Made by a program: the position numbers and the translations under genes. Source: Nostoc punctiforme PCC 73102 (GTDB lineage Bacteria > Cyanobacteriota > Cyanobacteriia > Cyanobacteriales > Nostocaceae). Taken from it: a DNA stretch of 32,000 nucleotides. Numbering within the stretch: position 1 is the first letter of the stretch; each line of letters opens with the position of its first letter. A model generated the notes under the pieces. It made no database searches, was not told where the DNA came from, and worked only from the letters and a program-made list of their open reading frames with translations. The stretch covers positions 7,650,001 through 7,682,000 of the forward strand of contig NC_010628.1 in the NCBI RefSeq assembly GCF_000020025.1, read 5' to 3'. Of this stretch, positions 1,796-28,474 are shown one piece after another.

Positions 1796-2026
1796 ATGTC
1801 ATCTCCAGCGATCGCTACTGTAATTAAGATGATGGAATCTTTATCTGAAGATGTGCAAGAAAGAGTTGCAGAACATCTCCGAGAGTACCTGGAAGATTTG
1901 CAAGATGAATTGAAATGGAGTAAATCATTTAAGAAAACTCAACAACAACTCATTGCATCTGCCCAATCCGCTAAAAGAGAAATTGCAAAAGGACTTGCAA
2001 AACCAATGAACTATGAAAATTTATGA
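1796..2026 (+). CDS. Small helical protein resembling a type II antitoxin (76 aa from the ATG at 1796; the ORF track starts at TTG 1775)
   Basis: AAGGAA lies upstream of ATG 1796. The sequence ...LSEDVQERVAEHLREYLEDLQDELKWSKSFKKTQQQLIASAQSAKREIAKGLAKPMNYENL matches the pattern I associate with cyanobacterial antitoxins partnered with RelE/ParE toxins. Its stop overlaps a downstream ATG as ATGA. Confidence 0.5.
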   Translation: MSSPAIATVIKMMESLSEDVQERVAEHLREYLEDLQDELKWSKSFKKTQQQLIASAQSAKREIAKGLAKPMNYENL

Positions 2027-2058
2027 AGTCTGCAACCCTTCCTTATTTTTGGAATTAA
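2023..2058 (+). pseudogene. 11-codon stub (MKSATLPYFWN*) in the position of a cognate toxin gene; probable truncated toxin remnant
   Basis: ATG 2023 overlaps the TGA of the upstream gene (ATGA), the usual toxin-antitoxin coupling. The frame stops at 2056-2058, exactly where the AT-rich block begins. Confidence 0.3.
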
Positions 2059-2094
2059 GATTATATTATTAATTTTTTGATATTAACTGAAAAA

Positions 2095-4092
2095 ATGGAT
2101 TTTACTTTATCAAATGCGCCTGAATATGCGATCAAAAATATTGAGAGTTTACAACAAATATGGTTGGAAAGATGCGGTGCTATTGAAAACAACCAAAAAG
2201 GATCCTATAGTCGCCATTTATTATTAATTTTACACGATTTGCGTGAAGAGATACAGAATAATAAAAATAGATTTTCTCAAAATGCTTACGGAAAAAAGTT
2301 CTTTAAAATTCAATTTTCTACTTACTGTAGTTTTAAAAAAGAACAACTTGATGATCTAGACAGAATTAGACAAATCTGGACAAGAGAAGTAGATCGAGAA
2401 CTATATTTCATTACTGAAGCTTTATCCGACAATAAAAGTAAATTTGAATTAGAGGATATTTTAATATTAATTCAACGTATAGAAGAAAAAATAACGTCAG
2501 AAAATAGCTTGAGGCAAGTTATTAATATTTTATACCAAAAACTACTTGAAAAAGACTTAAATTCTAATCAGATAGAATTTATTGTAGATATAATAATTAT
2601 ATTATTTAATTCTAAGGGAATGTTGGAGTTAGAATCAATACTAAATCATCAATTTCAAAAATTTGAAGATATAGGAACAGATCCTGAGCAAGTCCATTTA
2701 TACCCTACCCTATTTGGCTCACCATCAAGAGATGCAAAATCAGTTGATGAACATAAGGAAGAACTTAGAACATATTATGATTCTTCAAGTATTAAACAGA
2801 GACTTAACTTTTTAAGAGAAATTTATTGTCTAGAGCCTCAAACTTATAAAGTTATTTTCAAGATAACAGGTGTGGAATTCAAAAACAAAATTAATATAGG
2901 CAAAGTTGAACTATATCGTCCTAAAATAGATGGAAAATACATTAAAAAAAATGAGATTATAAGCATAACTGTTGAAGATAAGTCAGATTACTGTGTTGCA
3001 GTGGATATCCGAGGTGTAGATAGTAAATTCATGAAAATTAAAGCCCAACAAATGGCTGAAAGAACAATAGCTGTTCTCTCAACACGAAAGAGGAAAGACC
3101 AGGCTATTATTTTATCAAGTGATTGGGTTATTTGTAATTCTCAAGGAGAAATTCGAGCTTTTAGCTTTAAAGGCAGGAATAAGCCAGACACTATTAGACA
3201 TAACTCTATTGACTCGCAAAATAATCACCAAAGGCTTGGTCAGTGGATATCTTCTGAAGATATATGTCATCCAACTGTAGCAAAATGGCTTGCTTCTACC
3301 GACTGGTATAGACGAGCAACTGAAGCTTCACAAAGCACTGAAGAAATATTAAATTCCTGGTTTGCTGTAGAAAAGTTTTCTGAAGATTCTAAAATAATTT
3401 CTAAAAAACTTCCTGAACTATCAGATGCTCTTAAGAATAAAAAGAAGATTCTTAAAGAAAATATAGATTTATGGCTTGATGGTGAAGGTATTAGAACAGT
3501 ACAGTTACTTCTTACTTTGAGTGAATTAAAATTTAATTTATATCATGAAGTAAGACAAGTTGGACGTATTTTTACGACACCTCTAACATTTCCTGAAATG
3601 GATATATCTAAGTCTATAGACCAGGATTTGCAAGACTATTTATCTGCTAATAAAGATAAAATAGATTTTTTAGAAAAATTTATAGAAAAAACTCCTGAAA
3701 TAAAGAAACAATTAGATTCTAAAAACATAGTGTTGCCAGATTTAAATAAAGTCAATGAAATTTTTTATAATAATGATTATTGTGAAAAATACTTGGTTGA
3801 TAAAATTATTGACCTCAAAGATGATGTTTATAACATCTATCGTATTCGCAATATGCTAGTTCATTCTAGTAGTACTACTAGTAAACTATTAGATTATTAT
3901 GCAAAACGTAGCCGAGAGTATTGTCACTCTTTGTTAGATGCCATTGCATATAAAATATATCAGACTTCTAACGATGATGAAATTATGCCTTTGGAGTTTT
4001 ATTTTAGAGAAATGGTAATTGATGCAAATATTGCTTTAGAGGCGGTAAAAGAAAATCAAATGGACAACTTTAGGAATTGGGCTTTATCGTAA
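2095..4092 (+). CDS. Large protein of unknown family with a C-terminal HEPN-like RNxxxH motif (665 aa from ATG 2095; the track starts at TTG 2077)
   Basis: This is a long uninterrupted ORF in very AT-rich DNA. Its C-terminal segment DDVYNIYRIRNMLVHSSSTTSKLLDYY contains R-N-M-L-V-H (nt 3847-3864). The rest is not recognisable to me. Confidence 0.7.
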   Translation: MDFTLSNAPEYAIKNIESLQQIWLERCGAIENNQKGSYSRHLLLILHDLREEIQNNKNRFSQNAYGKKFFKIQFSTYCSFKKEQLDDLDRIRQIWTREVDRELYFITEALSDNKSKFELEDILILIQRIEEKITSENSLRQVINILYQKLLEKDLNSNQIEFIVDIIIILFNSKGMLELESILNHQFQKFEDIGTDPEQVHLYPTLFGSPSRDAKSVDEHKEELRTYYDSSSIKQRLNFLREIYCLEPQTYKVIFKITGVEFKNKINIGKVELYRPKIDGKYIKKNEIISITVEDKSDYCVAVDIRGVDSKFMKIKAQQMAERTIAVLSTRKRKDQAIILSSDWVICNSQGEIRAFSFKGRNKPDTIRHNSIDSQNNHQRLGQWISSEDICHPTVAKWLASTDWYRRATEASQSTEEILNSWFAVEKFSEDSKIISKKLPELSDALKNKKKILKENIDLWLDGEGIRTVQLLLTLSELKFNLYHEVRQVGRIFTTPLTFPEMDISKSIDQDLQDYLSANKDKIDFLEKFIEKTPEIKKQLDSKNIVLPDLNKVNEIFYNNDYCEKYLVDKIIDLKDDVYNIYRIRNMLVHSSSTTSKLLDYYAKRSREYCHSLLDAIAYKIYQTSNDDEIMPLEFYFREMVIDANIALEAVKENQMDNFRNWALS

Positions 4093-8179: not shown

Positions 8180-8391
8180 ATAGACGGGTGAAGTAATTTA
8201 AAGAAAATTGAATTCAGTACAACCAATACCACAAAGTATTCCAAAGGAGACTTTAGTCAAGATGTTGTGCTACTGTCCTTTTCGAGTCAAGTCTTCAAGT
8301 TTAATATGCAACAAATCATACGCGGCTGATTGCTGCCAAAGTTTATTTGTTGTGTGCATCCGCTCCTTTCAATGTTTGTGGGTTGAGCCTT

Positions 8392-9405
8392 ATGTCTGAC
8401 CTTCCTTTCACTTTAGATCAGTTACGGATTTTAAAAGCGATCGCACAAGAAGGAAGCTTCAAGCGTGCCGCCGATAGTCTTTATGTCTCCCAGCCTGCCG
8501 TCAGCTTACAAGTCCAAAATCTCGAACGGCAGCTAGATGTCCCTTTATTCGACCGTGGAGGAAGACGTGCCCAATTAACTGAAGCAGGACATCTACTCCT
8601 AAATTACGGTGAGAAAATCCTCAGTCTGTGTCAAGAAACCTGCCGCGCCATTGAGGATTTACAAAATCTCCAAGGCGGTACGTTAATTGTCGGTGCTTCT
8701 CAAACCACTGGCACTTATCTTTTGCCTAGAATGATCGGAATGTTCCGACAAAAATATCCAGATGTGGCAGTGCAATTACACGTCCACTCTACTCGGCGGA
8801 CTGCTTGGAGTGTAGCTAACGGACAAGTTGATCTGGCAATAATCGGCGGTGAAATTCCTGGTGAACTATCAGAATCTTTGGAAGTTCTTTCTTACGCAGA
8901 AGATGAACTAGCGCTGATTTTACCTGTCTTTCACCCCTTTGCCAAACTTGAAACAATCCAAAAAGAAGACCTATATAAATTACAATTCATTGCCTTAGAT
9001 TCCCAATCGACCATCCGCAAAGTCATCGATCAAGTGCTAGGACGTTGTGAAATTGATACCAGACGTTTTAAGGTTGAAATGGAACTAAATTCCATTGAAG
9101 CAATTAAGAATGCTGTGCAATCTGGTTTAGGGGCTGCTTTTGTTTCAACAAGTGCGATCGCTAAAGAGTTACAAATGGGTGTTCTGCACCGTACCCCTAT
9201 TGAAGGGGTAGTCGTCAAACGGACGCTATGGTTGATTTTTAATCCTAATCGCTATAGATCCAAGGCCGCAGAAGCCTTTAGTCAAGAAATTTTGCCCCAG
9301 TTTGCTAACCCTGGATGGAGTCAAGATGTGTTAAAATTGGCACAAAAAAACATCGTGGTAAGTACATTGGATATAGCAATACCCGCCTCCTCTGGCGAAG
9401 ACTAA
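8392..9405 (+). CDS. rbcR: LysR-type transcriptional regulator, RbcR/Ycf30-like (337 aa from ATG 8392)
   Basis: The N-terminus [55 protein letters not shown] is almost the canonical Ycf30/RbcR helix-turn-helix. The track start at 8347 is a TTG, 15 codons upstream. Confidence 0.88.
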
Positions 9406-9688: not shown

Positions 9689-11089
9689 ATGGAAGTTTAC
9701 TGTACTCGTCCACGTTGCCCACGCCCACAAAACTATTTTGCTGATTTAGATGATATTACAACCCTAAAAACAACGCAGCAAAAATACTGTACTACCTGTG
9801 GTATGCCACTACTGCTAGATGGTCGGTATGTGCCAACGAAGTTGCTGGGAAGGGGTGGATTTGGAGCAGCATTTTTGGCACGCGATCGCCGAATCCCAGG
9901 AATGCGTCAATGCGTGGTTAAGCAGTTTCAACCAGTGGGTAATTTAACCTCAACTCAACTGCAACAAGCACAGATAATGTTCGAGAGAGAGGCAGACGTT
10001 CTAGCACAACTTGGTAACGATCACGAACAAATTCCTGACTTGTTTGCCTTCTTCCCAGTGATAGTTAATAGTTCGCAATCAGGACAGGAAGACCAATTTT
10101 TTTACTTAGTACAAGAATATATTGATGGGCAAAATTTAGAAGAAGAATTAGTTCAACAAGGCAAATTTTCTGAACACCAAGTCTTAGAGGTGTTGCAAGA
10201 AATCCTGAAGGTGCTAAAGTTTGTCCACGAACGAGGCATTATCCACAGAGATATTAAACCCTCTAACATCATGCGCCGTCGTGATGGTAAGCTTTTTTTA
10301 CTAGATTTTGGCGCAGTTAAGCAAGTAACAAATGTTGCACTTGGTTCTGCTGCTTCTTCCACAGGAATTTATTCTATGGGATTTGCACCGCCGGAACAGA
10401 TGGCTGGGGGGCAAGTATTCCCATCTACAGACTTATACGCTTTAGCTGTAACTCTTATTACCTTGTTGACTAATCAGGAAGCAATTCAATTATTTGATGC
10501 CTATAGCAACCAGTGGAAATGGCGTGAGCAAGTAAATGTCAATTCTCGCCTTGCTGACATTTTAGATAAGATGCTGTTACCTGCTGCTAATCAGCGGTTT
10601 CAATCGGCACAGGAAGTTCTAGATGCACTTTACTCGCAGCCTCTAGCCGCTACACAGCTTAATTCACCTTCTGTAACACTTCCACCACAATCACCTAAAA
10701 GTTCTAATCCCGTCGTCTCCCAACCTCCACCAACTCAACCAGCGTTTTCTACAGTAGAATTGTTGGGTGGGGCGGCATTTAGTGGATTTGAAGGGGCATT
10801 GATAGCGATCGCCCTCTTCAGTTTAGTACAATCACCAATAGTTACTTTAAGCGTTGCATGTGTAATTTTGGGGATACTGGTATTTGCCCAAACTAGACGA
10901 TGGATTGAAAAGTTCGATTTATTAATTATTCCAACAATTACTTTTGCGATTATTTTTTTCATTCCCTTTTTACAAGGGGGTCTTGGCATTCAGGCAGTGG
11001 TCATTTTATCAGTTGCAGCAGCATTGGTAGCCATTTCACTGACAGCCATATTTCGGCTTATTTATAAATTATTATCTCTCATCCTTTAA
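9689..11089 (+). CDS. Membrane Ser/Thr protein kinase with an N-terminal 4-Cys (zinc-ribbon-like) prefix and a C-terminal multi-TM region
   Basis: The Cys pairs are CTRPRC...CTTCG. Hanks motifs are present: GRGGFGAAF, VVKQF (Lys), HRDIKPSN, DFG and APPE. A Pro/Ser-rich linker is followed by about four hydrophobic helices to the C-terminus. Confidence 0.9.
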   Translation: MEVYCTRPRCPRPQNYFADLDDITTLKTTQQKYCTTCGMPLLLDGRYVPTKLLGRGGFGAAFLARDRRIPGMRQCVVKQFQPVGNLTSTQLQQAQIMFEREADVLAQLGNDHEQIPDLFAFFPVIVNSSQSGQEDQFFYLVQEYIDGQNLEEELVQQGKFSEHQVLEVLQEILKVLKFVHERGIIHRDIKPSNIMRRRDGKLFLLDFGAVKQVTNVALGSAASSTGIYSMGFAPPEQMAGGQVFPSTDLYALAVTLITLLTNQEAIQLFDAYSNQWKWREQVNVNSRLADILDKMLLPAANQRFQSAQEVLDALYSQPLAATQLNSPSVTLPPQSPKSSNPVVSQPPPTQPAFSTVELLGGAAFSGFEGALIAIALFSLVQSPIVTLSVACVILGILVFAQTRRWIEKFDLLIIPTITFAIIFFIPFLQGGLGIQAVVILSVAAALVAISLTAIFRLIYKLLSLIL

Positions 11090-11116
11090 AAAGCTTCTGA
11101 TGCTAATAGTCACATA

Positions 11117-12163
11117 ATGTCTCAGAAAAACGAAACACTTAGTCTTTTCTTAGCTGTTGTTATCACCATTGGCTTAATCTTTAGTGGCTTATGGTTTTTT
11201 ATGGAACGGTGGGCACAACTAAATGGAACTGCTGCTAAATCTTCGGGGACTAACAATACAGATAATCCGATAAACCAGTTTATTAGTAGTAAATGTAACG
11301 TGCCCAACCTCTTAGAAGGGACATTCAACTATGGTGGTAGCACAACTTGGGCACCCATTCGTAAAGATGTAGACTCCGTACTAGAAAGCCAGTGCCCTCG
11401 GTTTATTTTACGTTACACTCAACCTCCATCAGGTAATGCAGGATCTGGAACTGGGATTCGGATGTTGATAGACAATCAACTAGCTTTTTCTCAATCTTCT
11501 CGTTCAGTAAAGGCTGAAGAAAATGCCGAAGCTCAACAAAAAGGATTTAGTTTGAAAGAAATTCCAGTAGCGATTGATGGAATTGCGATCGCTGTCAATC
11601 ACGATCTCAACATCCCTGGTTTAACTGTGGCTCAACTCAAAGACATCTACACAGGCAAAATTACTAATTGGCAACAGGTGGGTGGGTCAAATTTACCAAT
11701 TAAAGCTTACTCTCGTAGCGAAGAAGCTGGGGGTACAGTAGAATTCTTTGTCGAAAATGTTCTAAATAAAGAAAAGTTTGGTGCCAATATTAATTATGTT
11801 GGCACGACCACTGAAGCAGTACGAAAAGTAGCTGCAAATCCTGGGGGAATTTATTATGCTTCTGCCCCAGAAGTTGTACCTCAGTGTATTATTAAAACCA
11901 TACCACTGGGACGCACAAGCAGTCAATTAGTGCCTCCTTACCAACAACCGTTTGTATCTCCATCTCAATGTCCCAGTAAACGCAATCAATTGAATAGTCA
12001 GGCATTTCGTAGTGGAGATTATGCAATTACTCGCAATTTATTTGTAATTATTAAACAGAATGGTCAAACAGATCAGCAAGCTGGCGAAGCTTATGCAAAT
12101 TGGCTTCTGACACCTCAGAGTCAAGACCTGATTGAAAAGGCTGGATTTGTCAAAATTAAATGA
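11117..12163 (+). CDS. Membrane-anchored PstS-like (PBP type 2) solute-binding protein, paralog 1
   Basis: 348 aa, starting MSQKNET plus a TM helix. PstS-family-like segments follow (FNYGGSTTWAPIR, GSGTGI, AFSQSSR, IAIAVN, QLKDIYTGKITNWQQVGG). No pstCAB genes lie nearby. Confidence 0.8.
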   Translation: MSQKNETLSLFLAVVITIGLIFSGLWFFMERWAQLNGTAAKSSGTNNTDNPINQFISSKCNVPNLLEGTFNYGGSTTWAPIRKDVDSVLESQCPRFILRYTQPPSGNAGSGTGIRMLIDNQLAFSQSSRSVKAEENAEAQQKGFSLKEIPVAIDGIAIAVNHDLNIPGLTVAQLKDIYTGKITNWQQVGGSNLPIKAYSRSEEAGGTVEFFVENVLNKEKFGANINYVGTTTEAVRKVAANPGGIYYASAPEVVPQCIIKTIPLGRTSSQLVPPYQQPFVSPSQCPSKRNQLNSQAFRSGDYAITRNLFVIIKQNGQTDQQAGEAYANWLLTPQSQDLIEKAGFVKIK

Positions 12164-12220
12164 TCAAAGCAGTTAGATTTAGCCAAATAATAAACATTTT
12201 TATTTTATTAAAATCTGTTC

Positions 12221-13621
12221 ATGTCACAAAAGAATGAAACCGCAGTTTTAACCTTGGCTCTGTTGCTGACAGTTGGAATAGTTGGCGGTGGTGTGTGGTG
12301 GTTTACTAATGGCTCTGGAGCCAAAATAGGTAATACCCTCATTCCAGGTTCAGAAGCAGGCAAAAATCCATCCCTACAAGATCGGATTAGTTTTGGAGAC
12401 AAAACTTTGACTCCAGGTGCGGTTTCTGCTGCAAAAAAAGAAGGAGTCCAGGCGATCGCTGCTAAAAGTTATGATAAAGCGATCGCTAATTTCACAGACT
12501 CCCTCAAACTCAACCGTAACGATCCAGAAGCGCTGATCTTTCTTAATAACGCCCGCATCGGATCTTCCAAGAGTTACACCATTGTAGCTTCTGTACCAGT
12601 AGGGACTGATCCCAATGCTGCTTTAGAAATTTTGCGTGGCATTGCCCAAGCACAAAATGAAATTAATACCTCTGGAGGAGTCAAAGGAGTACCGTTAAGG
12701 GTAGGGATAGCTAACGATGATGACAATCCAGAAATAGCCAAGCAAATCGCTTCCAACCTAGTCAGTAATTCAGAAGTATTAGGTATAGTTGGGCCTAATA
12801 CTAGCGATTCCACCTTAGCCGCCGGTACTATTTATACTTCAGGACAACTTGTAGCAATTTCCCCTACCAGTACATCTGTAAAAATTTCTAACTTTAGCCG
12901 CTACGTTTTTCGCACGGTTCCCAGTGATTTTATGGCTGCTAGAAGTCTAGCCAACTATATGGTGAGAACCTTGCAGAAAAAAAATGCAGTGATTTTCTTT
13001 AATTCGCAAAGCAACTATAGCCAGTCTTTAAAGTCTGAGTTTGTTTCATCTGTTTCTTTAGAAGGTGGACAGGTATCCAGCGAATTTGACTTATCCAAGG
13101 CGGATTTTAGTACAGCTAAAAGTGTAGAACAAGCAACTAAGCAAGGTGCAGAAGTGTTGATGTTAGCTGCTAACACTGAAACTCTCGATAAAGCGCTGCA
13201 AGTAATTCAGATTAACCAAAAAAAGTTAACTCTGTTAGCGGGAGATGATGTTTATACCGCCAAAACTTTAGAGATTGGTAGAGAACAAGCTGTGGGGATG
13301 GTGGTGGCAGTTCCCTGGCATATTGACGGCGATCCTAAGTCAGATTTTCCCCAGAAATCGCGGCAGCTATGGGGCGGTGATGTGAGTTGGCGAAGCGCTC
13401 TCAGCTATGATGCTACAGTGGCTTTGATTGCCGCATTAAAACGCAATCCCACACGTTCTGGAGTTCAACAAGCACTCTTTTCCTCTGACTTTTCTGCCAC
13501 CGGCGCTTCTGGTACAATTCGGTTTTTAGCATCAGGCGATCGCAATGCGCCAGTCCAACTTGTAAAAATTGTTCCTGGTTCTCGCTCTCGCACTGGTTAT
13601 GACTTTGAGCCAGTGCGTTAA
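12221..13621 (+). CDS. Membrane-anchored type 1 periplasmic-binding protein (LivK/ANF-receptor-like) with a TPR-like N-terminal motif
   Basis: 466 aa, starting MSQKNET plus a TM helix. A TPR-like segment (AAKSYDKAIANFTDSLKLNRNDPEALIFLNNARI) precedes a branched-chain-amino-acid-binding-protein-like body (GIVGPNTSDSTLAAG..., FRTVPSD...). Confidence 0.75.
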   Translation: MSQKNETAVLTLALLLTVGIVGGGVWWFTNGSGAKIGNTLIPGSEAGKNPSLQDRISFGDKTLTPGAVSAAKKEGVQAIAAKSYDKAIANFTDSLKLNRNDPEALIFLNNARIGSSKSYTIVASVPVGTDPNAALEILRGIAQAQNEINTSGGVKGVPLRVGIANDDDNPEIAKQIASNLVSNSEVLGIVGPNTSDSTLAAGTIYTSGQLVAISPTSTSVKISNFSRYVFRTVPSDFMAARSLANYMVRTLQKKNAVIFFNSQSNYSQSLKSEFVSSVSLEGGQVSSEFDLSKADFSTAKSVEQATKQGAEVLMLAANTETLDKALQVIQINQKKLTLLAGDDVYTAKTLEIGREQAVGMVVAVPWHIDGDPKSDFPQKSRQLWGGDVSWRSALSYDATVALIAALKRNPTRSGVQQALFSSDFSATGASGTIRFLASGDRNAPVQLVKIVPGSRSRTGYDFEPVR

Positions 13622-13909
13622 TCAGCAATAAAAAATTAAAAATTAACCAATAGTTAACCTAAAAAAGCTCTCAAGATGAGAAATTGAGCTTTATAGGGAA
13701 CAATATTAACGCCAACTAACAATTTATGACTTACAGAGAAGTAACAAATAATTCAAAGCAAATTTACTATATCTAGAACCCTAAGTAATTCAGAAGTTAG
13801 GATTTGTCATAATTCACTAACAAAATACCCGTTCGCCAAATACAATCTCAAGTAGCAAGCACCTATTAAGTTAAGCACTTATATTGAATGGACGTGCGGG
13901 TAATTTACT

Positions 13910-14956
13910 ATGTCTCAAAAAAATGAAACAACTATTCTTGTTTTATCCATCCTAATCACAGCCGGGTTAATAGCTGGCGGTTTTTGGTGGTTTAGTAGAA
14001 GGTCTGGTGTTAACCTAAATTCAATTAATTCTGATGGCACTAAAACACCCCAGGCTGTATTAGAACAACCTAGTGGCAAGACTTTCGCCTCAATACAAGA
14101 TGTTCCTACAGGGTTATTCAATTATGGAGGTAGTACATCTTGGGCACCGATTCGCTTGGTAGTTGATTCACCAATTCAAGCGGCGCGACCAGAGTTTCGG
14201 CTGCGTTATGTAGAACCCAGTAATGCATCTCCTGGAACTGGTACTGGCATCCAGTCACTGATAGACGGTCAGCTAGCCTTTGCCCAGTCTTCCCGACCAC
14301 TTCTCGATCAGGAATTAAGCCGCGCCCAGCAGCGTGGATTCAGTTTGAAACAAATTCCTGTAGCTATTGATGGTTTAGCAGTCGCAGTTAACCCCAACCT
14401 CAAAATCTCAGGACTGACTGTAGACCAATTAAAGTCAATTTACACAGGCAAAATCAATAATTGGAGCCAGGTGGGTGGCCCCAATATCCCGATTAAGCCC
14501 TATTCTCGCCGCATTGCTGATGGCGGTACTGTAGAGCTTTTTGTCCAAGACATCTTGGGTGGTCAAGCTTTTAGCCCCAATGTGGAATTTGTCTCCACAA
14601 CCACCCAAGCCTTGCAAAAATTGGCTGGTAGTTCTGGTGGTATTTACTACGCTTCTGCCCCAGAAGTGATTCCTCAATGTTCAATCAAACCCTTACCGTT
14701 GGGGCGAGCACAAGGGCAATATATTGCTCCTTACCAAGAAACATTTGTCCTCCCGTCTGAATGTCCTGGTAAACGGAACAAATTGAATATTGAGGCTTTC
14801 CAATCAGGAAAATACCCGATTACCCGAAATCTGTTTGTGGTGGTCAAACAGAATGGTCAGACTGAGCAGCAAGCAGGTGTCGCTTACGCCAACTTACTGC
14901 TGACTGAGCAGGGACAGGAATTGATTACCCAAGCTGGATTTGTCAAAATTCGCTGA
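13910..14956 (+). CDS. Membrane-anchored PstS-like solute-binding protein, paralog 2
   Basis: 348 aa, colinear with and clearly paralogous to 11117-12163 (FNYGGSTSWAPIR ... FVKIR), with the same MSQKNET plus TM start. Confidence 0.8.
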   Translation: MSQKNETTILVLSILITAGLIAGGFWWFSRRSGVNLNSINSDGTKTPQAVLEQPSGKTFASIQDVPTGLFNYGGSTSWAPIRLVVDSPIQAARPEFRLRYVEPSNASPGTGTGIQSLIDGQLAFAQSSRPLLDQELSRAQQRGFSLKQIPVAIDGLAVAVNPNLKISGLTVDQLKSIYTGKINNWSQVGGPNIPIKPYSRRIADGGTVELFVQDILGGQAFSPNVEFVSTTTQALQKLAGSSGGIYYASAPEVIPQCSIKPLPLGRAQGQYIAPYQETFVLPSECPGKRNKLNIEAFQSGKYPITRNLFVVVKQNGQTEQQAGVAYANLLLTEQGQELITQAGFVKIR

Positions 14957-15010: not shown

Positions 15011-15730
15011 TTAACCAGCTCTATTAATCGATTCTGCTGGTAAACAAATTAAATTATCCCCTTGGGTGAGGATTAAGCCGCGTTGACGCAGCTTACCCAT
15101 CAAGCGGGTGACGGTGACACGGGTCGAACCAATCGCGCTACCAATTTGGGCATGGGTGAGGGGGAAAGGCAGACAATAGCCGCGAATCACATCAGGATCG
15201 GTGTCGCTCATTGCTGGCTCTCCATATTCCTCAATTAACAATGTGAGAAATCCTAAGAGTCGATCAATTGTACGGCGTTGTCCCAAGGCACTCAGCCACA
15301 GCAGCTTACGCTGGTGCTGATACCTAAAGGCATCCATAACTTCACGACGGAAGTGAGGCCAGTTGTCTAGGTCATGCCAGTACATCCACAGCACCGCAGT
15401 TTGGTCAACATGGGCGTAAGCCTGGAGTGTAAATGGCGACTGAGCAACAATTTCAAATGGCTGTCCCGCTCCCACAAAACCCAAGAACGCTTCTTCTGGG
15501 GTTCTGTTAATTCGTCGAGACGTTAGCTGACTAGCTGTTGCACTAACTTGGGCAGTTCCTACCATGCGGATCGCACCCCTTTGCACCAAATATAGCAATC
15601 CAGGCCGGGCTGGAATGCGCTCATCTTTGCTAAAGGTACGGCATCGATAGTGTTCTTGAGCCCAGTCAAGAATTCGTTGCCAAGTTAAAAAAGGCCGTGA
15701 TGCCTCAGAAAAGGAGGATGGAGATTGCAT
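15011..15730 (-). CDS. Crp/Fnr-family transcriptional regulator (239 aa from ATG 15730)
   Basis: The C-terminal helix-turn-helix reads LTHAQIGSAIGSTRVTVTRLMGKLRQRGLI, and a cNMP-binding-like fold lies upstream. The track start at 15838 is a TTG, 36 codons further upstream. Confidence 0.8.
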   Translation of the reverse strand: MQSPSSFSEASRPFLTWQRILDWAQEHYRCRTFSKDERIPARPGLLYLVQRGAIRMVGTAQVSATASQLTSRRINRTPEEAFLGFVGAGQPFEIVAQSPFTLQAYAHVDQTAVLWMYWHDLDNWPHFRREVMDAFRYQHQRKLLWLSALGQRRTIDRLLGFLTLLIEEYGEPAMSDTDPDVIRGYCLPFPLTHAQIGSAIGSTRVTVTRLMGKLRQRGLILTQGDNLICLPAESINRAG

Positions 15731-16041
15731 AGGTAACAAAGAGCGTTCGGCTGAAGACAAAGACGTGATCAAAAGGTGCAAGGAGTGTCTTTGTGTTGAC
15801 GAGGCAGGCTTAACGCCTAACAGCGCCAGCCAATCCAAAGAATAGAAAGCAAATTACTCTCTACTCTTTTGTTATACTTCCTACTGTACAATGATGGTAG
15901 TAAAGTTTACTTACTATTCATCGATTATTCATCAAATTTTATCCTCTTCTCATTTTTCTTCATCTAAATTAAATTTATACCGCAAGATAGATGACAGAAA
16001 AGTAACAAATATATCTTACATGACTGTTTAAATAATATTAC

Positions 16042-18313: not shown

Positions 18314-19048
18314 CTATGAATTTGACCCTTTGAGCCAGCTTTTTTTGCGTTGTGACAACAGACAAAGCCCAGCAATTAAACCAATTCCAAGTGTGGCAGA
18401 GGGTTCGGGTACTGATTTAATATCATAGTTATAGGTTAATTTGATACCTGCTTTGGCATAAGTATCAATATAGGAGCTAATGTTGCCCGATCCTTTAACT
18501 TCTGAGTCGGCTATAGCTGAGAACAAAAAGTCTACGTTGCCATTGCCAATAAAAGACTGCAATAATTGCGTATCAGTGAAAGACTGGATACCAGATTGTG
18601 TAGCAGTTAAGTTAGAAAGAGTCTTTCCAGATGTGCCACCATAATCACTGATGCCATCATATTTGGCAACTTGGTAACTAGAAGTATATTGTGGATTCAG
18701 TTCCAACAAAGACTGATTATTTAGTTTTAAGCTTAATTGACTGCCAAGATTTACTGTGGCTTGTCTTGCGTTTGGACTTCTATTTTCAAAACCTGCATTT
18801 CCAAGTATGTCGCCAGTAAATTCTATTGTTATGCCTTGGAGTGTGCCTAGAGATGAGTTAAATTTTTGGACGCTCAAAGGTGAGTCAATGATATCTGTAA
18901 ACTCGTAATTAGTGGAAGTACTGTACGAGAGAGAAGCTGCATTAGCTGCTCCAGATGTTACAACAATACCTGCCAAAGTTGTAGCAGCAGCTAAAGTGTT
19001 CAATAGTTTTGTTGTCATAATGGAGGATACTTTTCTAAAACGAATCAT
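18314..19048 (-). CDS. Secreted PEP-CTERM sorting-domain protein
   Basis: An N-terminal signal peptide (...LAGIVVTSGAANA) is present. The C-terminus reads VPEPSATLGIGLIAGLCLLSQRKKS, i.e. PEP motif, TM helix and basic tail. An alternative ATG lies at 19018. Confidence 0.8.
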   Translation of the reverse strand: MIRFRKVSSIMTTKLLNTLAAATTLAGIVVTSGAANAASLSYSTSTNYEFTDIIDSPLSVQKFNSSLGTLQGITIEFTGDILGNAGFENRSPNARQATVNLGSQLSLKLNNQSLLELNPQYTSSYQVAKYDGISDYGGTSGKTLSNLTATQSGIQSFTDTQLLQSFIGNGNVDFLFSAIADSEVKGSGNISSYIDTYAKAGIKLTYNYDIKSVPEPSATLGIGLIAGLCLLSQRKKSWLKGSNS

Positions 19049-23427: not shown

Positions 23428-24126
23428 TTAATCAACTAAGTTTCTCTGCTTCAATTTTTGCAATTTCAACATCGTAATACATATCATCAGCCATAAAAAC
23501 CCCACTCCATAACCTGCAATTATGTCTGTAGGCCAATGGACTCCTAAATATAAGCGGCTAATACCAATGGCAGCAATTAAAATAACTGTCAAACTGTAAA
23601 TAAATTTGGCAAAACGAGGATAGTGAGTTGCCAATTCGTGAGCAATAAAACCATAAAGTACCATAGAACCTAGTGCATGACCGCTAGGAAAACTAAAAGA
23701 TTTTTCATAAATCAATCGATGCCACAGTTCAGGGCGAGGTTTAGAAAAAAATAACTTTAGTCCTGTATTTAAAATGAATCCTCCTAAACAAGCAAGGACG
23801 AAAAATTTCGCTTCTTCTCGATAATGTTGCCACCAGAGTAATATTAGATTAACGCTAACAACGATGACTACTGTACTAGGATTACCAAGGTTGGTAATGA
23901 ATAACATAAAGTTATCTAAGCTGGGATTGGCGAACTGATGTAGCCATAACAGAAAAGTCGTATCAAATCTAAAAGCTTCTCGCTCTAAAACTTCTTCAGC
24001 TATTTTTGCTAAAACGAAAAGTATTAGCAGACAACTAGCAAGTCCAAAAATACCAATTGTGGCAATTAAGCCAGTCAAACGAGGATGTATGTGACGCAAC
24101 CAGAAATTAGAAATTTGTCGGAGCAT
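23428..24126 (-). CDS. PAP2-superfamily membrane phosphatase (lipid phosphate or undecaprenyl-diphosphate phosphatase type)
   Basis: All three acid-phosphatase motifs are present: KLFFSKPRP, PSGH and SRLYLGVHWPTD. The start lies 12 nt after the upstream gene. Confidence 0.88.
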   Translation of the reverse strand: MLRQISNFWLRHIHPRLTGLIATIGIFGLASCLLILFVLAKIAEEVLEREAFRFDTTFLLWLHQFANPSLDNFMLFITNLGNPSTVVIVVSVNLILLWWQHYREEAKFFVLACLGGFILNTGLKLFFSKPRPELWHRLIYEKSFSFPSGHALGSMVLYGFIAHELATHYPRFAKFIYSLTVILIAAIGISRLYLGVHWPTDIIAGYGVGFLWLMICITMLKLQKLKQRNLVD

Positions 24127-24138
24127 ACTTAAAACGTA

Positions 24139-24882
24139 TTACTCAATTGGACGACGCACTTTTTTTTCATTTCGCACAGAAAAGAATAGCACAACTGCTA
24201 GCAGGATAAAGGCGATAGCAGAAGCATAGCCCCTTGGCAGTGATAGACCGCCATTTTTAACTGGTTTTGTCAGAAAATCTCCGAAGGTGGCTCCGAAAGG
24301 ACGTGTGAAGATAAATGCGAGCCAGAATAGAAGGATATCGCTCAACTTTGTTACGTAGTGAAGGGCGATGACAACACCAATGACGGTAGCTGTCACCAAT
24401 GCACCCTGGATATAACTTAGTCCCAAGTTGCTTGTGAGAAAATCACCAAAGGCTGTTCCCAAACTGTTGGAGAACACCACAGCCAGCCAATAGGTAGTCT
24501 CTGCATCTTTCTTGACAATCGGATAAACGCTCAGATCGCGATCGCGGTAATACCAGATGCTAAGAACGCTCAACAGACCGGCAACCAGAAGAAGCGATCC
24601 CAGTGCGTAGCCAAGTCCAAGAGATCGATCCATCAAGTCTGAAACTTCGGTTCCGGCTGTAGTTGTGGCGATGATGGCCACCCAATAAAGGACTGGACGA
24701 TATCTGTCGGATTGAATTTGAAAAAACAGGAGAATAGCCAGAATAGCAAACGTTATAGCAAAGCCTATGTAATACCCCAGGCCAAGAGTCATTGAGATGA
24801 AGTCACCTGCCGTCTCGCCGAGCGTCGTGGCGATAATCTTCATGATCCAGAAGAAAATTGTGACTTTTGCAACTTTGTTCAT
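24139..24882 (-). CDS. Polytopic membrane protein with four internal 2-TM repeats (uncharacterised family), paralog B
   Basis: 247 aa with a repeated motif (F/Y)W-x7-(T/S)xG(T/E)xxxD(F/L)...LGLGY, e.g. FFWIMKIIATTLGETAGDF, LYWVAIIATTTAGTEVSDL, TYWLAVVFSNSLGTAFGDF and LFWLAFIFTRPFGATFGDF. Confidence 0.75.
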   Translation of the reverse strand: MNKVAKVTIFFWIMKIIATTLGETAGDFISMTLGLGYYIGFAITFAILAILLFFQIQSDRYRPVLYWVAIIATTTAGTEVSDLMDRSLGLGYALGSLLLVAGLLSVLSIWYYRDRDLSVYPIVKKDAETTYWLAVVFSNSLGTAFGDFLTSNLGLSYIQGALVTATVIGVVIALHYVTKLSDILLFWLAFIFTRPFGATFGDFLTKPVKNGGLSLPRGYASAIAFILLAVVLFFSVRNEKKVRRPIE

Positions 24883-24923
24883 TTATTTTTCACAATAAAA
24901 AATAGTAAGTCAGCGATTGCTAA

Positions 24924-25691
24924 TCAGTCTTGTCGGTCAATCGGCAGTAAGACTGGTTTTTTCTGCTTAAGGCTTAAGTAAATAACTAGGCTTATGATTA
25001 TAGAAAGAAAAAGCATACTGGTTCCGACAGTACCAAAACCAAAGCCACCATTTGTAGTAGATTGGGATAGTAAATCACCTATAGATGCTCCAAGTGGACG
25101 AGTTAAGATATAAGCTAACCAGAATGCCAAAACTGCATTCATCCACAAGTAATAATAAGTGATCGCTATGATTGCAATTGAAGCACCAAATATCAGTGCT
25201 GATTGTGCATAACCCAATCCCAAAGACTCTGCTAAGAGGTCTCCTGTTGCAGTGCCCAAGGCAAACGTAAATAAAACAGCCACCCAATAAAAAAGCTCTC
25301 TTTTAGCTGTATTGATGGAGTGCATGGCTAATGTCTTTTCGCTTGAATACCAGAGTGCAAAAACTATCAACAAGGAAACACTAAAAATTACAGTAGTTGT
25401 TACCAAACTAACTCCAAGCTCATCTACTAATCTATCAGTGATCAGTGTGCCAACGATACTTATCAAAACGACCACAAACCAGAAACTTGCTGGAACATAG
25501 CGTTTAAGCTTAAACTGATTCAACAGCACAATCAATAATACAGCGCTCATAATGTAGGATGTAATGCCTAAACCAAGGTTCAGTGTTGCTGATAGAAAAT
25601 CTGCTGCGGTTTCACCTACTGTAGTTGCCAAAACCTTAATGATCCAGAAGTAAATTGTTACCTCTGGAACCCTGTTTAACATCTTATTCAT
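24924..25691 (-). CDS. Polytopic membrane protein with four internal 2-TM repeats, paralog A
   Basis: 255 aa with the same fourfold motif (IYFWIIKVLATTVGETAADF, FWFVVVLISIVGTLITDRL, FYWVAVLFTFALGTATGDL, AFWLAYILTRPLGASIGDL). Confidence 0.75.
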   Translation of the reverse strand: MNKMLNRVPEVTIYFWIIKVLATTVGETAADFLSATLNLGLGITSYIMSAVLLIVLLNQFKLKRYVPASFWFVVVLISIVGTLITDRLVDELGVSLVTTTVIFSVSLLIVFALWYSSEKTLAMHSINTAKRELFYWVAVLFTFALGTATGDLLAESLGLGYAQSALIFGASIAIIAITYYYLWMNAVLAFWLAYILTRPLGASIGDLLSQSTTNGGFGFGTVGTSMLFLSIIISLVIYLSLKQKKPVLLPIDRQD

Positions 25692-25795
25692 GAGCTTTCT
25701 CCTTCTTGATTTTTCCGTAGAAGTGAGATTACATCACATCTTAAAGTTAGCTGTATTCTCAGAAATCACTGAGTGATTGTACTTTACACAGTAAA

Positions 25796-25814
25796 AGTCA
25801 AGAAATAGTCAAGA
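25796..25814 (-). promoter_or_regulatory. Putative response-regulator box (direct repeat with 11-bp period) upstream of the membrane-protein/PAP2 operon
   Basis: The plus strand reads AGTCAAGA-AAT-AGTCAAGA. In the gene direction the box is followed by a 9-nt spacer and TAAAGT (25786-25781). Confidence 0.5.
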
Positions 25815-25922
25815 TTTGATAGAAAACGGAATTTTATCTTAATCGAGGCAGTAAAAATAGCTAAAATCTCTACTTAAAAATTAATTTTACTATTTGATAT
25901 TAAATTTTTTAACTAAAATCAA

Positions 25923-25941
25923 TCTTGACTATTTCTGGACT
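25923..25941 (+). promoter_or_regulatory. Mirror copy of the same box upstream of the PepSY gene
   Basis: TCTTGACT-ATT-TCTGGACT is the reverse complement of 25796-25814 at 18 of 19 positions. It is followed by a 9-nt spacer and TACTGT (25951-25956). Confidence 0.5.
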
Positions 25942-25993
25942 TTTATTACCTACTGTGAAAATACAAACCCAGACTTAAAGGAATTTTTAAAGT

Positions 25994-26479
25994 ATGAAAA
26001 CTTCAACACAAATTATTTTGGCAGCAGCTTTTGTTGGTACTTTAGGACTTGCTGAATTGTCGAGAGTTGTGTCTGCAAAACAACCACAATCTTTTGTAGC
26101 AATTGCACGTCAGCATCATAGTGTTATCAAAGTTGCTGAAGCCAGTGATGGAGACGGTGAAACCAACGACGATGCACAAGAAACGGCAAAACTGCAACCG
26201 CTAGCTAAAATTACAGCACAACAAGCACAGCAAGCAGCTGAAGCATCTGTGGAAGGTAAAGCCAAAAGCGTCAAACTCGAAAATGAGGATGGCAATTTAA
26301 TTTATGCTGTAGAAATTGGTCAGCAAGAAGTTACAGTAGATGCTGGTAACGGCAAAGTTCTCTATGTTGAAAATGCCAATCAACAAGATGAAAAGAATGA
26401 AGCCACTCGTCCCAAGAGTAGTATTCAAGTTAAAGAAACTAGTGATGGCGATCGCGAAACCAATGATGATGGTAAGTAG
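25994..26479 (+). CDS. Secreted PepSY-domain protein flanked by two acidic SDGD(G/R)ETNDD motifs
   Basis: It has a signal peptide and a PepSY-like core (ITAQQAQQAAEASVEGKAKSVKLENEDGNLIYAVEIG...VTVDAGNGKVLYVE). The acidic motifs lie at nt 26144-26173 and 26441-26470. Confidence 0.8.
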   Translation: MKTSTQIILAAAFVGTLGLAELSRVVSAKQPQSFVAIARQHHSVIKVAEASDGDGETNDDAQETAKLQPLAKITAQQAQQAAEASVEGKAKSVKLENEDGNLIYAVEIGQQEVTVDAGNGKVLYVENANQQDEKNEATRPKSSIQVKETSDGDRETNDDGK

Positions 26480-26498
26480 GGAACTTAAAATCACATTG

Positions 26499-27731
26499 TC
26501 AAGAGGTTGGTAAATGCACAGTAAAACAACTACCAACTCCTAATTGACTCGTAACACTAATTAATCCACCGTGATTTTGGGCAATAGCTTGAGCGATCGC
26601 CAGCCCTAAACCAGAACCACCTGACCAATAAGAACGAGACTGATCGGCTCGCCAAAAACGCTCAAAAACCTTGTCTATATGCTCTGGTGCAATTCCCACG
26701 CCTGTATCTTGCACATTGACATAAAGCTGGGAACCGACGCGACTAGTTTTAATTTCGACTACGCCTCTTGATGGTGTATAATAGAGTGCGTTTTCAAATA
26801 AATTAGTAAATAGTCGCGTTAATTGAACTAAATCACCTATTAGCTGAAGATTAGCAATTAATTGAAATTTAAAAGTAATTTGTTTAGCTTCAGCTTGAGG
26901 TTTATACAGTTGTATTAGGTTCTCTAATATTGAGGTTAAATTGAGAGTATCCCTATTTTGAGTAGGGACTTTCTCGGTGCGTGCTAACAATAATAAGTCT
27001 TCTGTGAGGCGAGTCATCTGGTTAGTAGCACTGGCGATCGCTTGAAACTTTTCTGCATCTTTTGGCCCTATTTCTTCTGGATATTGTAGCGGTAACTCCG
27101 CATTAATTTTGATAGCCATTAACGGACTGCGTAATTCATGGGAAGCATCAGCAGTAAACTGTTTTAATTTTTGAAAGCTCTCTTCAATAGGTTGCATTGC
27201 TTGACGAGTTAGCAAAATTCCGCCAATACCGCTAAGAAGCAAAGTTATAATAATTCCACCGCCTAATACCCAGTCTAGTTTTTGTAGAGTTTCATCAAAT
27301 TCTTCTAAAGATTGGCTCACCCTTACATACCCAACAAGCTGACCATTATCATTAGCAAGAATTGGAACAGTCACTACTTGGATAGGAACTTTACCTGTCT
27401 GAATTTGTACCCTTTTGTTTGGTAAAAAAGGTAAAATTAAAACAGTTTTCCCTTGTTGGTTAATTAAATTTCCCTGAGTATCAAACCACTGTAATCCTTG
27501 ATGATAAGCAATTAAGTCTTGTGGACGAAAGTCACTTTCAACCGTTAGGCGACCTTTTTCAAACTCTACATTTGCAGCCGCACCTTTTCCTATTGCTATG
27601 AGTTTATCTGTTATTTGTTCACTCAGACTCCGAGTGAAAGCAAATCTGACTGCGATCGCAAATATTCCCAGCAGCGATGCAAACACCACTAAATAAGACA
27701 ATAATAAACGATATCTGATTCTTTGAAACAC
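26499..27731 (-). CDS. Sensor histidine kinase (two TM helices, periplasmic loop, HisKA, HATPase)
   Basis: H-box FTADASHELRSPL, N-box FENALYYTP and G-boxes DTGVGI and GGSGLGLAI are present. The predicted start is GTG. Confidence 0.9.
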   Translation of the reverse strand: MFQRIRYRLLLSYLVVFASLLGIFAIAVRFAFTRSLSEQITDKLIAIGKGAAANVEFEKGRLTVESDFRPQDLIAYHQGLQWFDTQGNLINQQGKTVLILPFLPNKRVQIQTGKVPIQVVTVPILANDNGQLVGYVRVSQSLEEFDETLQKLDWVLGGGIIITLLLSGIGGILLTRQAMQPIEESFQKLKQFTADASHELRSPLMAIKINAELPLQYPEEIGPKDAEKFQAIASATNQMTRLTEDLLLLARTEKVPTQNRDTLNLTSILENLIQLYKPQAEAKQITFKFQLIANLQLIGDLVQLTRLFTNLFENALYYTPSRGVVEIKTSRVGSQLYVNVQDTGVGIAPEHIDKVFERFWRADQSRSYWSGGSGLGLAIAQAIAQNHGGLISVTSQLGVGSCFTVHLPTS

Positions 27732-27799
27732 ATTATTTTCGCTATATAATTGTTAATTATTAGATCATGGATCTCTAAAATTAATATTTTTTAAATAGT

Positions 27800-28474
27800 T
27801 TAATTGTGTCCTAAACGATAACCAATGCCATAAATATTTTCAATAAATTCCTCTGAACTTCCAGATGCTTTAAGTTTATTCCGCAAATTGGTAATATGAG
27901 TTTTAATACTTCCTTCACCCGAAGATTTATCAAAGTCCCACAGTTTGTCAAGAATTGCAGAACGAGTTACAACTAGATTGGGATTTCTCAAAAAATATTC
28001 TAATATCATATATTCTTTAGGAGTTAATGATATGATATTTCCTGCATAAGTAACCTGTTGAGTTGCTGGGTCTAGTTGCAAATCACCGTGGATTAAAATC
28101 TGAGGACGAATCTCTGGAGTTCTTCGAGCTAAAGCCCTGATGCGTGCTGCTAATTCTTTTAGTTCAAATGGCTTAACTAAGTAATCATCAGCACCAGCAT
28201 CAAGTCCTATAATTTTATCGTCTGTTGTATCTCGTGCCGTCAGCATTAAAATCAAAACATTAGATGAAGTAGCGCGTAAACGCTTACATAAAGTAATTCC
28301 ATCTAATTTAGGAAGCATTAAATCTAATAAAATTAGCTCATAGAATCCTGACTGCGACCATTCCCAGGCTGCAAAACCATCAGTTTTTATATCTACAAGA
28401 TGGTGTTGTCGTCTTAAAAACTCGGCTAATGGTTTAGCAATGCGATCGTCATCTTCAACTATCAAAATTCTCAT
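27800..28474 (-). CDS. OmpR/PhoB-family response regulator
   Basis: The receiver domain reads MRILIVEDD...DLMLPKLDG...K. The winged-helix C-terminus reads LTPKEYMILEYFLRNPNLVVTR...IYGIGYRLG. Confidence 0.93.
   Translation of the reverse strand: MRILIVEDDDRIAKPLAEFLRRQHHLVDIKTDGFAAWEWSQSGFYELILLDLMLPKLDGITLCKRLRATSSNVLILMLTARDTTDDKIIGLDAGADDYLVKPFELKELAARIRALARRTPEIRPQILIHGDLQLDPATQQVTYAGNIISLTPKEYMILEYFLRNPNLVVTRSAILDKLWDFDKSSGEGSIKTHITNLRNKLKASGSSEEFIENIYGIGYRLGHN

Follow-up and report, generated by a model that had tools for sequence, protein, structure and literature searches.

A membrane Ser/Thr kinase and its neighbouring anchored solute-binding proteins in Nostoc punctiforme: a possible split receptor-kinase system

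We analyzed a 32,000-nt stretch of Nostoc punctiforme PCC 73102 (NC_010628.1, positions 7,650,001–7,682,000; hereafter “the window”, whose own positions are used as coordinates throughout), in which a gene for a membrane Ser/Thr kinase is followed by genes for three membrane-anchored solute-binding proteins (SBPs), SBP1, SBP2, and SBP3. Sequence comparisons suggest, with a probability that we put at roughly two in three (0.68), that the kinase and the anchored SBPs act together as a split, non-covalent receptor Ser/Thr kinase. An initial annotation, made from the DNA letters of the window, had already proposed such a split system, and this reading is supported by the conservation of the operon across relatives, by an N-terminal anchor common to the SBPs, by covalent kinase–SBP fusions encoded at the same locus, and by the absence of nearby ATP-binding cassette (ABC) transporter genes.

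The list of open reading frames (ORFs) confirmed the order of the four genes, all on the + strand, and the intergenic gaps of 27 nt (kinase–SBP1), 57 nt (SBP1–SBP2), and 288 nt (SBP2–SBP3) (Table 1). The kinase, with 98% identity to proteins from Nostoc sp. TCL240-02 and C057, gave a Pkinase match across its catalytic domain (E = 1.7e-34; 119.9 bits against a cut-off of 31.7), and its N-terminal 4-Cys prefix, noted in the initial annotation, corresponds to the NCBIfam model 4Cys_prefix_kin (residues 4–41; 47.2 bits against a cut-off of 24), with the four Cys invariant in 74 orthologues. The catalytic motifs are likewise complete, with GRGGFG, K78, E101, H186-R187-D188, D206-F207-G208, and the Glu of the APE motif (E236) invariant in the same set. 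In an AlphaFold2 model built from an alignment of 74 sequences (mean predicted local distance difference test (pLDDT) score of 77), the catalytic domain mostly scored above 85. Between the catalytic domain and the membrane lies a linker with a majority-residue frequency of 0.35, as opposed to 0.80 for the catalytic domain. The approximate count of four C-terminal transmembrane (TM) helices was made exact by the model, in agreement with hydropathy (residues 355–380, 384–402, 410–429, and 434–465). The outer loops between these helices span 3–4 residues, so that the kinase has nothing exposed outside the membrane and indeed no extracytoplasmic domain, as had been claimed. No Pfam family matched this 4-TM module at E values up to 10, and its conserved motifs comprise a G-F-E in TM1, a Q.RRWIEK.DL cytoplasmic loop, and a C-terminal FRLIYKLLS. 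With a Ser/Thr kinase (STK) domain followed by four TM helices and no other Pfam domain, the protein falls within the definition of the cbSTKI-TM class.

Table 1 Features of the kinase–SBP locus and of its flanking regulators (window coordinates).
Feature	Coordinates	Strand	Details
LysR-type regulator, CbbR/RbcR-like subfamily	8347..9405	+	HTH_1 + LysR_substrate; likely true start ATG 8392
Membrane Ser/Thr kinase	9689..11089	+	466 aa: 4-Cys prefix, Hanks kinase domain, disordered linker, 4-TM module
4-Cys prefix, zinc-ribbon-like cytoplasmic N-terminus	9698..9811	+	C5, C10, C34, C37; NF045510
Hanks-type catalytic domain, residues 49–312	9833..10624	+	PF00069
Disordered Pro/Ser/Thr/Gln-rich linker, residues 319–351	10643..10741	+	AlphaFold2 pLDDT about 35
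4-TM module, residues 355–465; proposed docking base for SBP anchors	10751..11083	+	AlphaFold2, motifs
SBP1, signal-anchored, PstS-like	11117..12163	+	anchor 11117–11206; PBP_like_2 11321–12112
SBP2, signal-anchored, LivK/ANF-receptor-like	12221..13621	+	anchor 12221–12310; TPR-like 12407–12580; Peripla_BP_6 12632–13564
SBP3, signal-anchored, PstS-like paralogue, Crp-proximal type	13910..14956	+	anchor 13910–13999; PBP_like_2 14123–14902
Crp/Fnr-family regulator, convergent with SBP3	15011..15838	-	HTH_Crp_2/Crp

Domain searches upheld the family assignments of the binding proteins, each of which carries one N-terminal TM segment as proposed. SBP1 and SBP3, which are 59% identical, matched PBP_like_2 (E = 4e-34 and 4e-28; 119 and 99 bits against a cut-off of 27) and are thus PstS-like, while SBP2 matched Peripla_BP_6/ANF_receptor (E = 5e-34; 118.8 bits against a cut-off of 31.7); against the PDB, SBP1 matched PstS structures (E = 2e-20) and SBP2 gave an E value of 5e-16. 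The cut-offs of the NCBIfam transporter models were not reached, neither by the PstS-like pair (TIGR02136, 151.8 and 149.2 bits against 206.6; TIGR00975, 37.9 and 40.3 against 205) nor by SBP2 (LivJ/K, 63 bits against 477). The initial claim that no ABC genes lie nearby also held: domain searches of the window's ORFs of 110 aa or more found no permease or ATPase domain, and hence no pstC, pstA, pstB, or livHMGF partners. Within the PstS-like family, the invariant loops GGST, G-x-G-I, SSR, R...GGT, and TTT fall, in the alignment, where solved PstS proteins have their anion-binding loops, as judged by a mapping onto E. coli PstS residues. Two Cys are also invariant in this family, and would fit a periplasmic disulfide. 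A phosphate-like oxyanion would thus be a reasonable candidate ligand of the PstS-like SBPs. The PstS-like gene that adjoins the Crp gene is always of the SBP3 type, which occurs in nearly all related loci, and the kinase-proximal one is of the SBP1 type in close relatives; since these positions are kept across loci, SBP1 and SBP3 are old and stable paralogues. This paralogy points to distinct inputs more than to redundancy. In SBP2, a TPR-like stretch between the anchor and Peripla_BP_6 (residues 63–120) scored weakly against Pfam TPR models and cross-matches TPR repeats in an unrelated locus (L008).

All three SBPs open with the same signature, MSQKNET..L.L..LIT.GL.GG.WWF, i.e., a short tail followed by one hydrophobic helix, ahead of two unrelated folds. 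Across the PstS-like proteins (n = 95), the majority-residue frequency was 0.76 for the anchor, 0.32 for the following linker, and 0.77 for the folded domain, and the LivK-like proteins (n = 19) displayed the same pattern (0.73, 0.30, and 0.76). Anchor identity between the two families is about 60%, against 10% for the adjoining linkers. Over their first 90 nt, the SBP genes share 50–59 identical nt and encode MSQKNET with synonymously different codons, which indicates selection on the anchor peptide and excludes a recent DNA copy. Some members carry variant tails (MAKRNEL in L086, MAQKNDT in L001, and MSEKKET in L159). We read the anchor helix as probably uncleaved, as it is too long and lacks signal-peptide cleavage or lipoprotein motifs, and no Pfam family matched the anchors at E values up to 10. 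A hidden Markov model of the anchor, run against 11,389 ORF segments of all fetched loci, retrieved 125 PstS-like proteins, 29 LivK-like proteins, one fusion, and nothing else. One same-family PstS-like protein (L130, 3866–5032) bears a CxxC...CxxC zinc-ribbon in place of the MSQKNET tail, followed by a TM helix; this cytoplasmic zinc-ribbon N-terminus resembles the 4-Cys prefix of the kinase.

The gene neighbourhood was evaluated from both sides. On the kinase side, a search of 1.8 billion representative proteins yielded about twenty full-length kinases with the 4-TM module (36–61% identity), and a profile search placed the family in many cyanobacterial orders, with matches including Xenococcaceae, Microcoleus, Coleofasciculus, Crinalium, Stanieria, Lyngbya, Chroococcus, Scytonema, and Halomicronema. 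As a scan of genome contigs with the kinase alignment returned two true orthologues among 80 loci, the rest being generic kinase motifs, contexts were read from the contigs encoding the representatives. Anchored SBPs lie directly 3′ of the kinase in 8 of 12 diverse lineages, namely Nostoc, Tildeniella, Crinalium PCC 9333, Synechocystis PCC 7509, a Lyngbya-like contig, and three metagenome-assembled genomes, which bears out the co-occurrence implied by the initial reading. The kinase is followed by PstS-like, LivK-like, and PstS-like genes in the window, by one PstS-like gene in Tildeniella (L001), by one LivK-like gene in L082 and in L086/L087, by LivK-like and PstS-like genes in Crinalium PCC 9333 (L088), by two PstS-like genes in Synechocystis PCC 7509 (L090), and by a LivK-like and two PstS-like genes in both L084 and the Lyngbya-like contig (L172). 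Unannotated genes upstream of the kinase in L082 were examined as further anchored sensors and proved not to be such. On the SBP side, a metagenome scan with the anchored PstS-like alignment yielded 79 loci, 58 of which had enough upstream DNA: the kinase with its 4-TM module was directly upstream in 49 (median gap of about 26 nt), and fused to the SBP in one. The SBP sets varied between loci, with two PstS-like genes (21 loci), two PstS-like and one LivK-like (12), one PstS-like (9), one of each (4), or one PstS-like and two LivK-like (3). The recurring block reads NnrU(-) LysR(+) kinase(+) SBPs(+) Crp(-) DALR(+) HAD(-), with zero to four SBP genes. None of the 79 loci contained an ABC-ATPase-like ORF (Walker-A plus LSGGQ), in a test that did pick up both real ABC genes in L089.

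The initial annotation had suggested searching for fused proteins as “Rosetta-stone” evidence, and such proteins were found at the very same locus. Among the 150 closest kinase representatives (50%-identity clusters), 15 are fusions to periplasmic-binding protein domains, one with the architecture kinase-1TM-PBP_like_2 (P0146) and fourteen with kinase-1TM-Peripla_BP_6. P0146 (694 aa) matches SBP3 with an E value of 3e-86, in an alignment that extends into its TM helix, where the anchor signature GGGWWF is retained; its gene lies between LysR(+) and Crp(-) in L081, the same context as in the Nostoc window. A second kinase-1TM-PstS-like fusion, of 702 aa, was found in L158, in the order NnrU, LysR, fusion, Crp, HAD. 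Compared with the split locus L159, its identity is 75% to the kinase and 77% to the SBP, and it lacks the 4-TM module, the spacer between the two genes, and the MSEKKET tail; read residue by residue, the kinase sequence “...PPRSAFS” runs directly into the anchor helix “PVLVLAALMAIGLVSGGVWWF”. Neither kinase–PstS-like fusion contains the 4-TM module. The two share 47% identity, and a neighbour-joining tree of catalytic domains does not place them as sisters but pairs the L158 fusion with split L159; we therefore read them as two independent fusion events. As for the LivK type, the best Peripla_BP_6 fusion (P0145) matches SBP2 at E = 3e-130, and 12 of the 14 such fusions form a separate clade in the tree. 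Two whose contexts were read, P0274 (L170; a cluster-mate of P0145) and P0225 (L171), are stand-alone genes elsewhere, with no ABC genes nearby. The fusions also set the topology, with the SBP domain extracytoplasmic.

Most simply read, the 4-TM module, together with the tail and the anchor helix, could take the place, through non-covalent contacts, of the peptide bond that ties a periplasmic binding domain to a cytoplasmic kinase in the single-chain proteins. In such a system, the kinase domain would be cytoplasmic and tethered by a flexible linker to a compact 4-TM module with essentially no periplasmic surface, while the SBPs would be type-II signal-anchored periplasmic proteins. The MSQKNET tail and the LIT.GL.GG.WWF helix would dock side-on, within the membrane, against the 4-TM module, and the docked assembly would amount to a single-pass receptor kinase that bears a Venus-flytrap ectodomain. 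The putative ligands would be a phosphate-like oxyanion for the PstS-like SBPs, and an amino acid or a similar small molecule for the LivK-like one. Ligand binding may then alter the packing or pairing of the ectodomains, so that tethered kinase domains would meet and trans-autophosphorylate, with the co-located LysR (CbbR/RbcR-like) and/or Crp-family regulators as likely outputs. The linkers are poorly conserved on the kinase and on the SBPs, and the kinase linker is modelled as disordered; flexible linkers on both sides of the membrane make clustering or dimerization a more plausible mode than a rigid piston. The physical docking, the ligand identities, the direction of regulation, and the substrates are inferences, as is the “interchangeable” character that the initial annotation gave to the three SBPs as sensors. 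More tentatively, the 28-residue anchor may be a dedicated plug for which the 4-TM module is the socket, which would yield multi-input kinases from interchangeable SBPs, co-transcribed with LysR and paired with Crp, and would carry external phosphate-like and amino-acid-like signals to the global control of carbon or nutrient genes by Ser/Thr phosphorylation; we consider this extended scheme less likely than not.

Several observations weigh against the split receptor kinase. The contact between the anchor and the 4-TM module is itself presumed, and the same flexible linkers that favour clustering leave no obvious path for a conformational signal. No SBP adjoins the kinase in 4 of the 12 lineages (L002, L083, L085, and Stanieria PCC 7437 (L089)), and no kinase lies upstream of the SBP in 8 of the 58 SBP-side loci, all eight of which keep the anchor; in six of these eight the Crp gene adjoins, and the contigs of L104 and L120 end just after the SBP. 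The kinase–SBP link can therefore break, or may act in trans. The synteny also takes in unrelated flanking genes (NnrU, DALR, and HAD), and part of the conservation is thus inherited gene order. In the presumed anion site, the S-G-T loop of PstS reads G-G-T (Ser to Gly), and phosphate binding is not assured. Finally, a database search with a 42-aa anchor profile returned just 18 short fragments, so that the exclusivity of the anchor applies to the fetched loci.

The likeliest alternative is that the SBPs are ordinary tethered subunits of ABC importers encoded elsewhere (Pst for phosphate, Nat/Liv for amino acids), and that their adjacency to the kinase reflects shared regulation or inherited order. 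The membership of the SBPs in the PstS and LivK superfamilies, their conserved anion-site loops, the unlinked kinase lineages (4/12) and SBP loci (8/58), and the synteny of NnrU, DALR, and HAD, which have no obvious functional tie, are all compatible with this explanation. We nevertheless consider it unlikely: ABC genes are lacking in the window and ABC-ATPase-like ORFs in the 79 loci, the proteins score under the NCBIfam cut-offs for PstS (152 against 206.6) and LivJ/K (63 against 477), and a uniform, conserved anchor on two unrelated folds is unnecessary for transport. The same-locus kinase-TM-SBP fusions are harder still to accommodate, as an SBP welded to a kinase cannot be a transporter subunit alone.

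Alternatively, information could flow the other way, with the SBPs as targets of the kinase. Ser2 and Thr7 of MSQKNET would then be phosphorylated, with effects on stability, localization, or partners, and the 4-TM module would sense a property of the membrane. Most members do have a Ser and a Thr in the tail, some lineages retain the 4-TM kinase with no SBP beside it, so that the kinase may have its own input, and TM1 contains a conserved membrane-embedded Glu. However, Ser2 and Thr7 are not universal (MAKRNEL in L086, MAQKNDT in L001), and the fusions drop the tail while keeping kinase and ectodomain, which fits better with a flow from sensor to kinase and makes this explanation improbable in our view. 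That the adjacency is a frozen accident of inherited gene order, with no functional coupling of kinase and SBPs, we judge very improbable: the whole NnrU-LysR-kinase-SBPs-Crp-DALR-HAD block is indeed syntenic across many loci, and many of the metagenome loci are fairly close kin (SBP identity of 56–91%), but the tight kinase–SBP spacing (median of about 26 nt) is kept although the kinases are just 40–60% identical, the adjacency persists while the number (0–4) and order of SBPs vary, and in-frame fusion occurred twice independently.

The kinase and SBP genes are flanked by two candidate outputs. The LysR-type gene immediately precedes the kinase, in the same orientation, in nearly all related loci, among them L081, L084, L086, L088, L089, L090, L172, and most of L091–L169, with LysR–kinase gaps of 5 nt (in L081) to 283 nt, and is a candidate operon member, regulator, or output of the kinase. 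Its best PDB match is 5y2v, a “Rubisco operon transcriptional regulator” (122 bits). Its N-terminus may resemble that of RbcR/Ycf30, a suggestive likeness that does not establish an identity as RbcR or PacR. The Crp-family gene, which matched the cyanobacterial PtrA model weakly (76 bits against a cut-off of 300), is a possible output or co-regulated partner. It stays convergent with the SBP3-type gene in loci where the LysR–kinase part is gone (L097, L112, L116, L122, and L149).

A scan for promoters and terminators returned counts at or below shuffled expectation, and operon boundaries are therefore not informed by it. The kinase and SBP1 are in frame with each other, with one TAA and nine sense codons between them (11087–11119). 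A read-through product, i.e., a kinase–SBP1 fusion with five TM helices, would be topologically sensible, but the shared frame is not kept across the other loci and is probably due to chance. Elsewhere in the window, an ORF of 671 aa (2077–4092, +) lies in an island of 27–31% GC (low-GC stretch 2001–4000), compared with about 40–47% in the rest. It had no match in Pfam, NCBIfam, or PADLOC; its C-terminal “RIRNMLVHS” resembles the Rx4H motif of HEPN type, which makes the ORF a candidate foreign gene with a defence or Abi-like role. The product of the gene at 18314–19048 (-) combines a choice-of-anchor E domain with a PEP-CTERM sorting signal. A further cluster (23428–28474, -/+), unconnected to the kinase and SBPs, encodes a PAP2 phosphatase, two DUF347 membrane proteins, a PepSY protein, an ArlS-type histidine kinase, and an OmpR-type response regulator.

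The activators of bacterial Hanks-type kinases are mostly unknown, and those of cyanobacteria, which encode dozens of such kinases, almost entirely so. The present locus offers a concrete and widely conserved candidate, in which a sensor-less kinase is accompanied by one to four anchored SBPs with assayable pockets. The natural fusions provide a built-in control, as the prediction from them is that the sole role of the 4-TM module and the MSQKNET tail would be to hold the pieces together. If the plug-and-socket arrangement were true, it would give the widespread cbSTKI-TM (SpkF-type) kinases their first defined input. Confirmation would establish an intramembrane mode of attaching a sensor to a kinase, would explain “orphan” PstS and LivK genes that are now annotated as transporter parts, and would point to a nutrient-sensing route toward the adjoining LysR and Crp regulators.

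Among known systems, the initial annotation had taken GlnH–GlnX–PknG of Corynebacterium and Mycobacterium as its precedent, in which an SBP reports nutrients through a four-TM element to a Hanks-type kinase (PMC6069109, PMC9769921). The precedent holds for this logic (SBP to four-TM element to Hanks kinase), for the clustering of the genes, and for a Cys-rich N-terminal motif on the kinase; it does not extend, beyond the shared kinase fold, to a relatedness of the parts, whose sequences were not compared and whose domain content differs. The rubredoxin-like N-terminal domain of PknG is of a metal-binding type. PknG is, however, a soluble protein with rubredoxin-like, kinase, and TPR domains, whereas the Nostoc kinase has no TPR, and GlnX is a separate protein described as having large periplasmic domains, whereas in Nostoc the 4-TM element belongs to the kinase polypeptide, with outer loops of 3–4 residues. 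The Nostoc SBPs further differ in carrying a dedicated, conserved TM anchor, in numbering up to four per kinase, and in belonging to two folds, PBP_like_2 and Peripla_BP_6, neither of them GlnH-like. Transporter-type SBPs have been reused as detachable sensors for membrane signalling proteins in LuxP–LuxQ, TorT–TorS, ChvE–VirA, and MBP–Tar. Unlike the anchored SBPs, LuxP, TorT, ChvE, and MBP are soluble proteins whose docking site is a periplasmic sensor domain; the Nostoc receiver has no such domain, and the contact is proposed to lie within the membrane.

As for the SBPs themselves, SBP1 and SBP3 share the PBP_like_2 fold and most anion-site loops with proteins of the PstS/SphX/Sll0540 type (PDB 4q8r, 4gd5, 9l8j), and differ from them in scoring under the family cut-offs, in having no pstCAB neighbours, in the uncleaved TM anchor, and in reading GGT for SGT. 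Sll0540 (9l8j), an orphan PstS homologue, is among the closest solved relatives of SBP1. In Synechocystis PCC 6803, one column of an ethanol-stress table lists both sll0540 and slr1225, the gene of the TM kinase SpkF, as induced (PMC3564720), which is a weak hint of co-regulation. SpkF belongs to the cbSTKI-TM class, defined by an STK domain followed by 3–6 TM helices and no other domain (PMC2176072), and is an integral protein of the plasma membrane (PMC11863333). The Nostoc kinase is alike in class, in that its Hanks kinase domain is followed by TM helices with no recognizable sensor, and no proposal of an input or partner for the class was found in the literature searched.

Closest in composition are the single-chain kinases with a periplasmic-binding ectodomain, which belong to the same 4-Cys-prefix lineage and have one TM helix leading to Peripla_BP_6/ANF_receptor or PBP_like_2; “cbSTKII ANF” kinases of this kind, alr0344 and CwatDRAFT_0902, were catalogued in 2007 by Zhang et al. 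(PMC2176072). In the Nostoc locus, by contrast, kinase and ectodomains are encoded apart, the kinase ORF being closed by a TAA stop and followed by a 27-nt spacer; the 4-TM module and the conserved anchor would be their sole connection, and several alternative ectodomain genes accompany one kinase gene. The logic also resembles that of eukaryotic Venus-flytrap receptors, such as natriuretic-peptide receptors and Venus-flytrap receptor tyrosine kinases (PMC2680970). For the fused or split system, Sll0540, SpkF, and the Anabaena locus tags, the literature searched yielded catalogue entries (PMC2176072) and no functional description, nor did it contain a description of the anchor, the operon, or the split/fused relationship. 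Overall, while the cbSTKI-TM and ANF-kinase architectures were already known, the shared anchor, the conserved LysR–kinase–SBP–Crp operon, and the relationship between split and fused forms, as they emerge from these comparisons, appear to be new.

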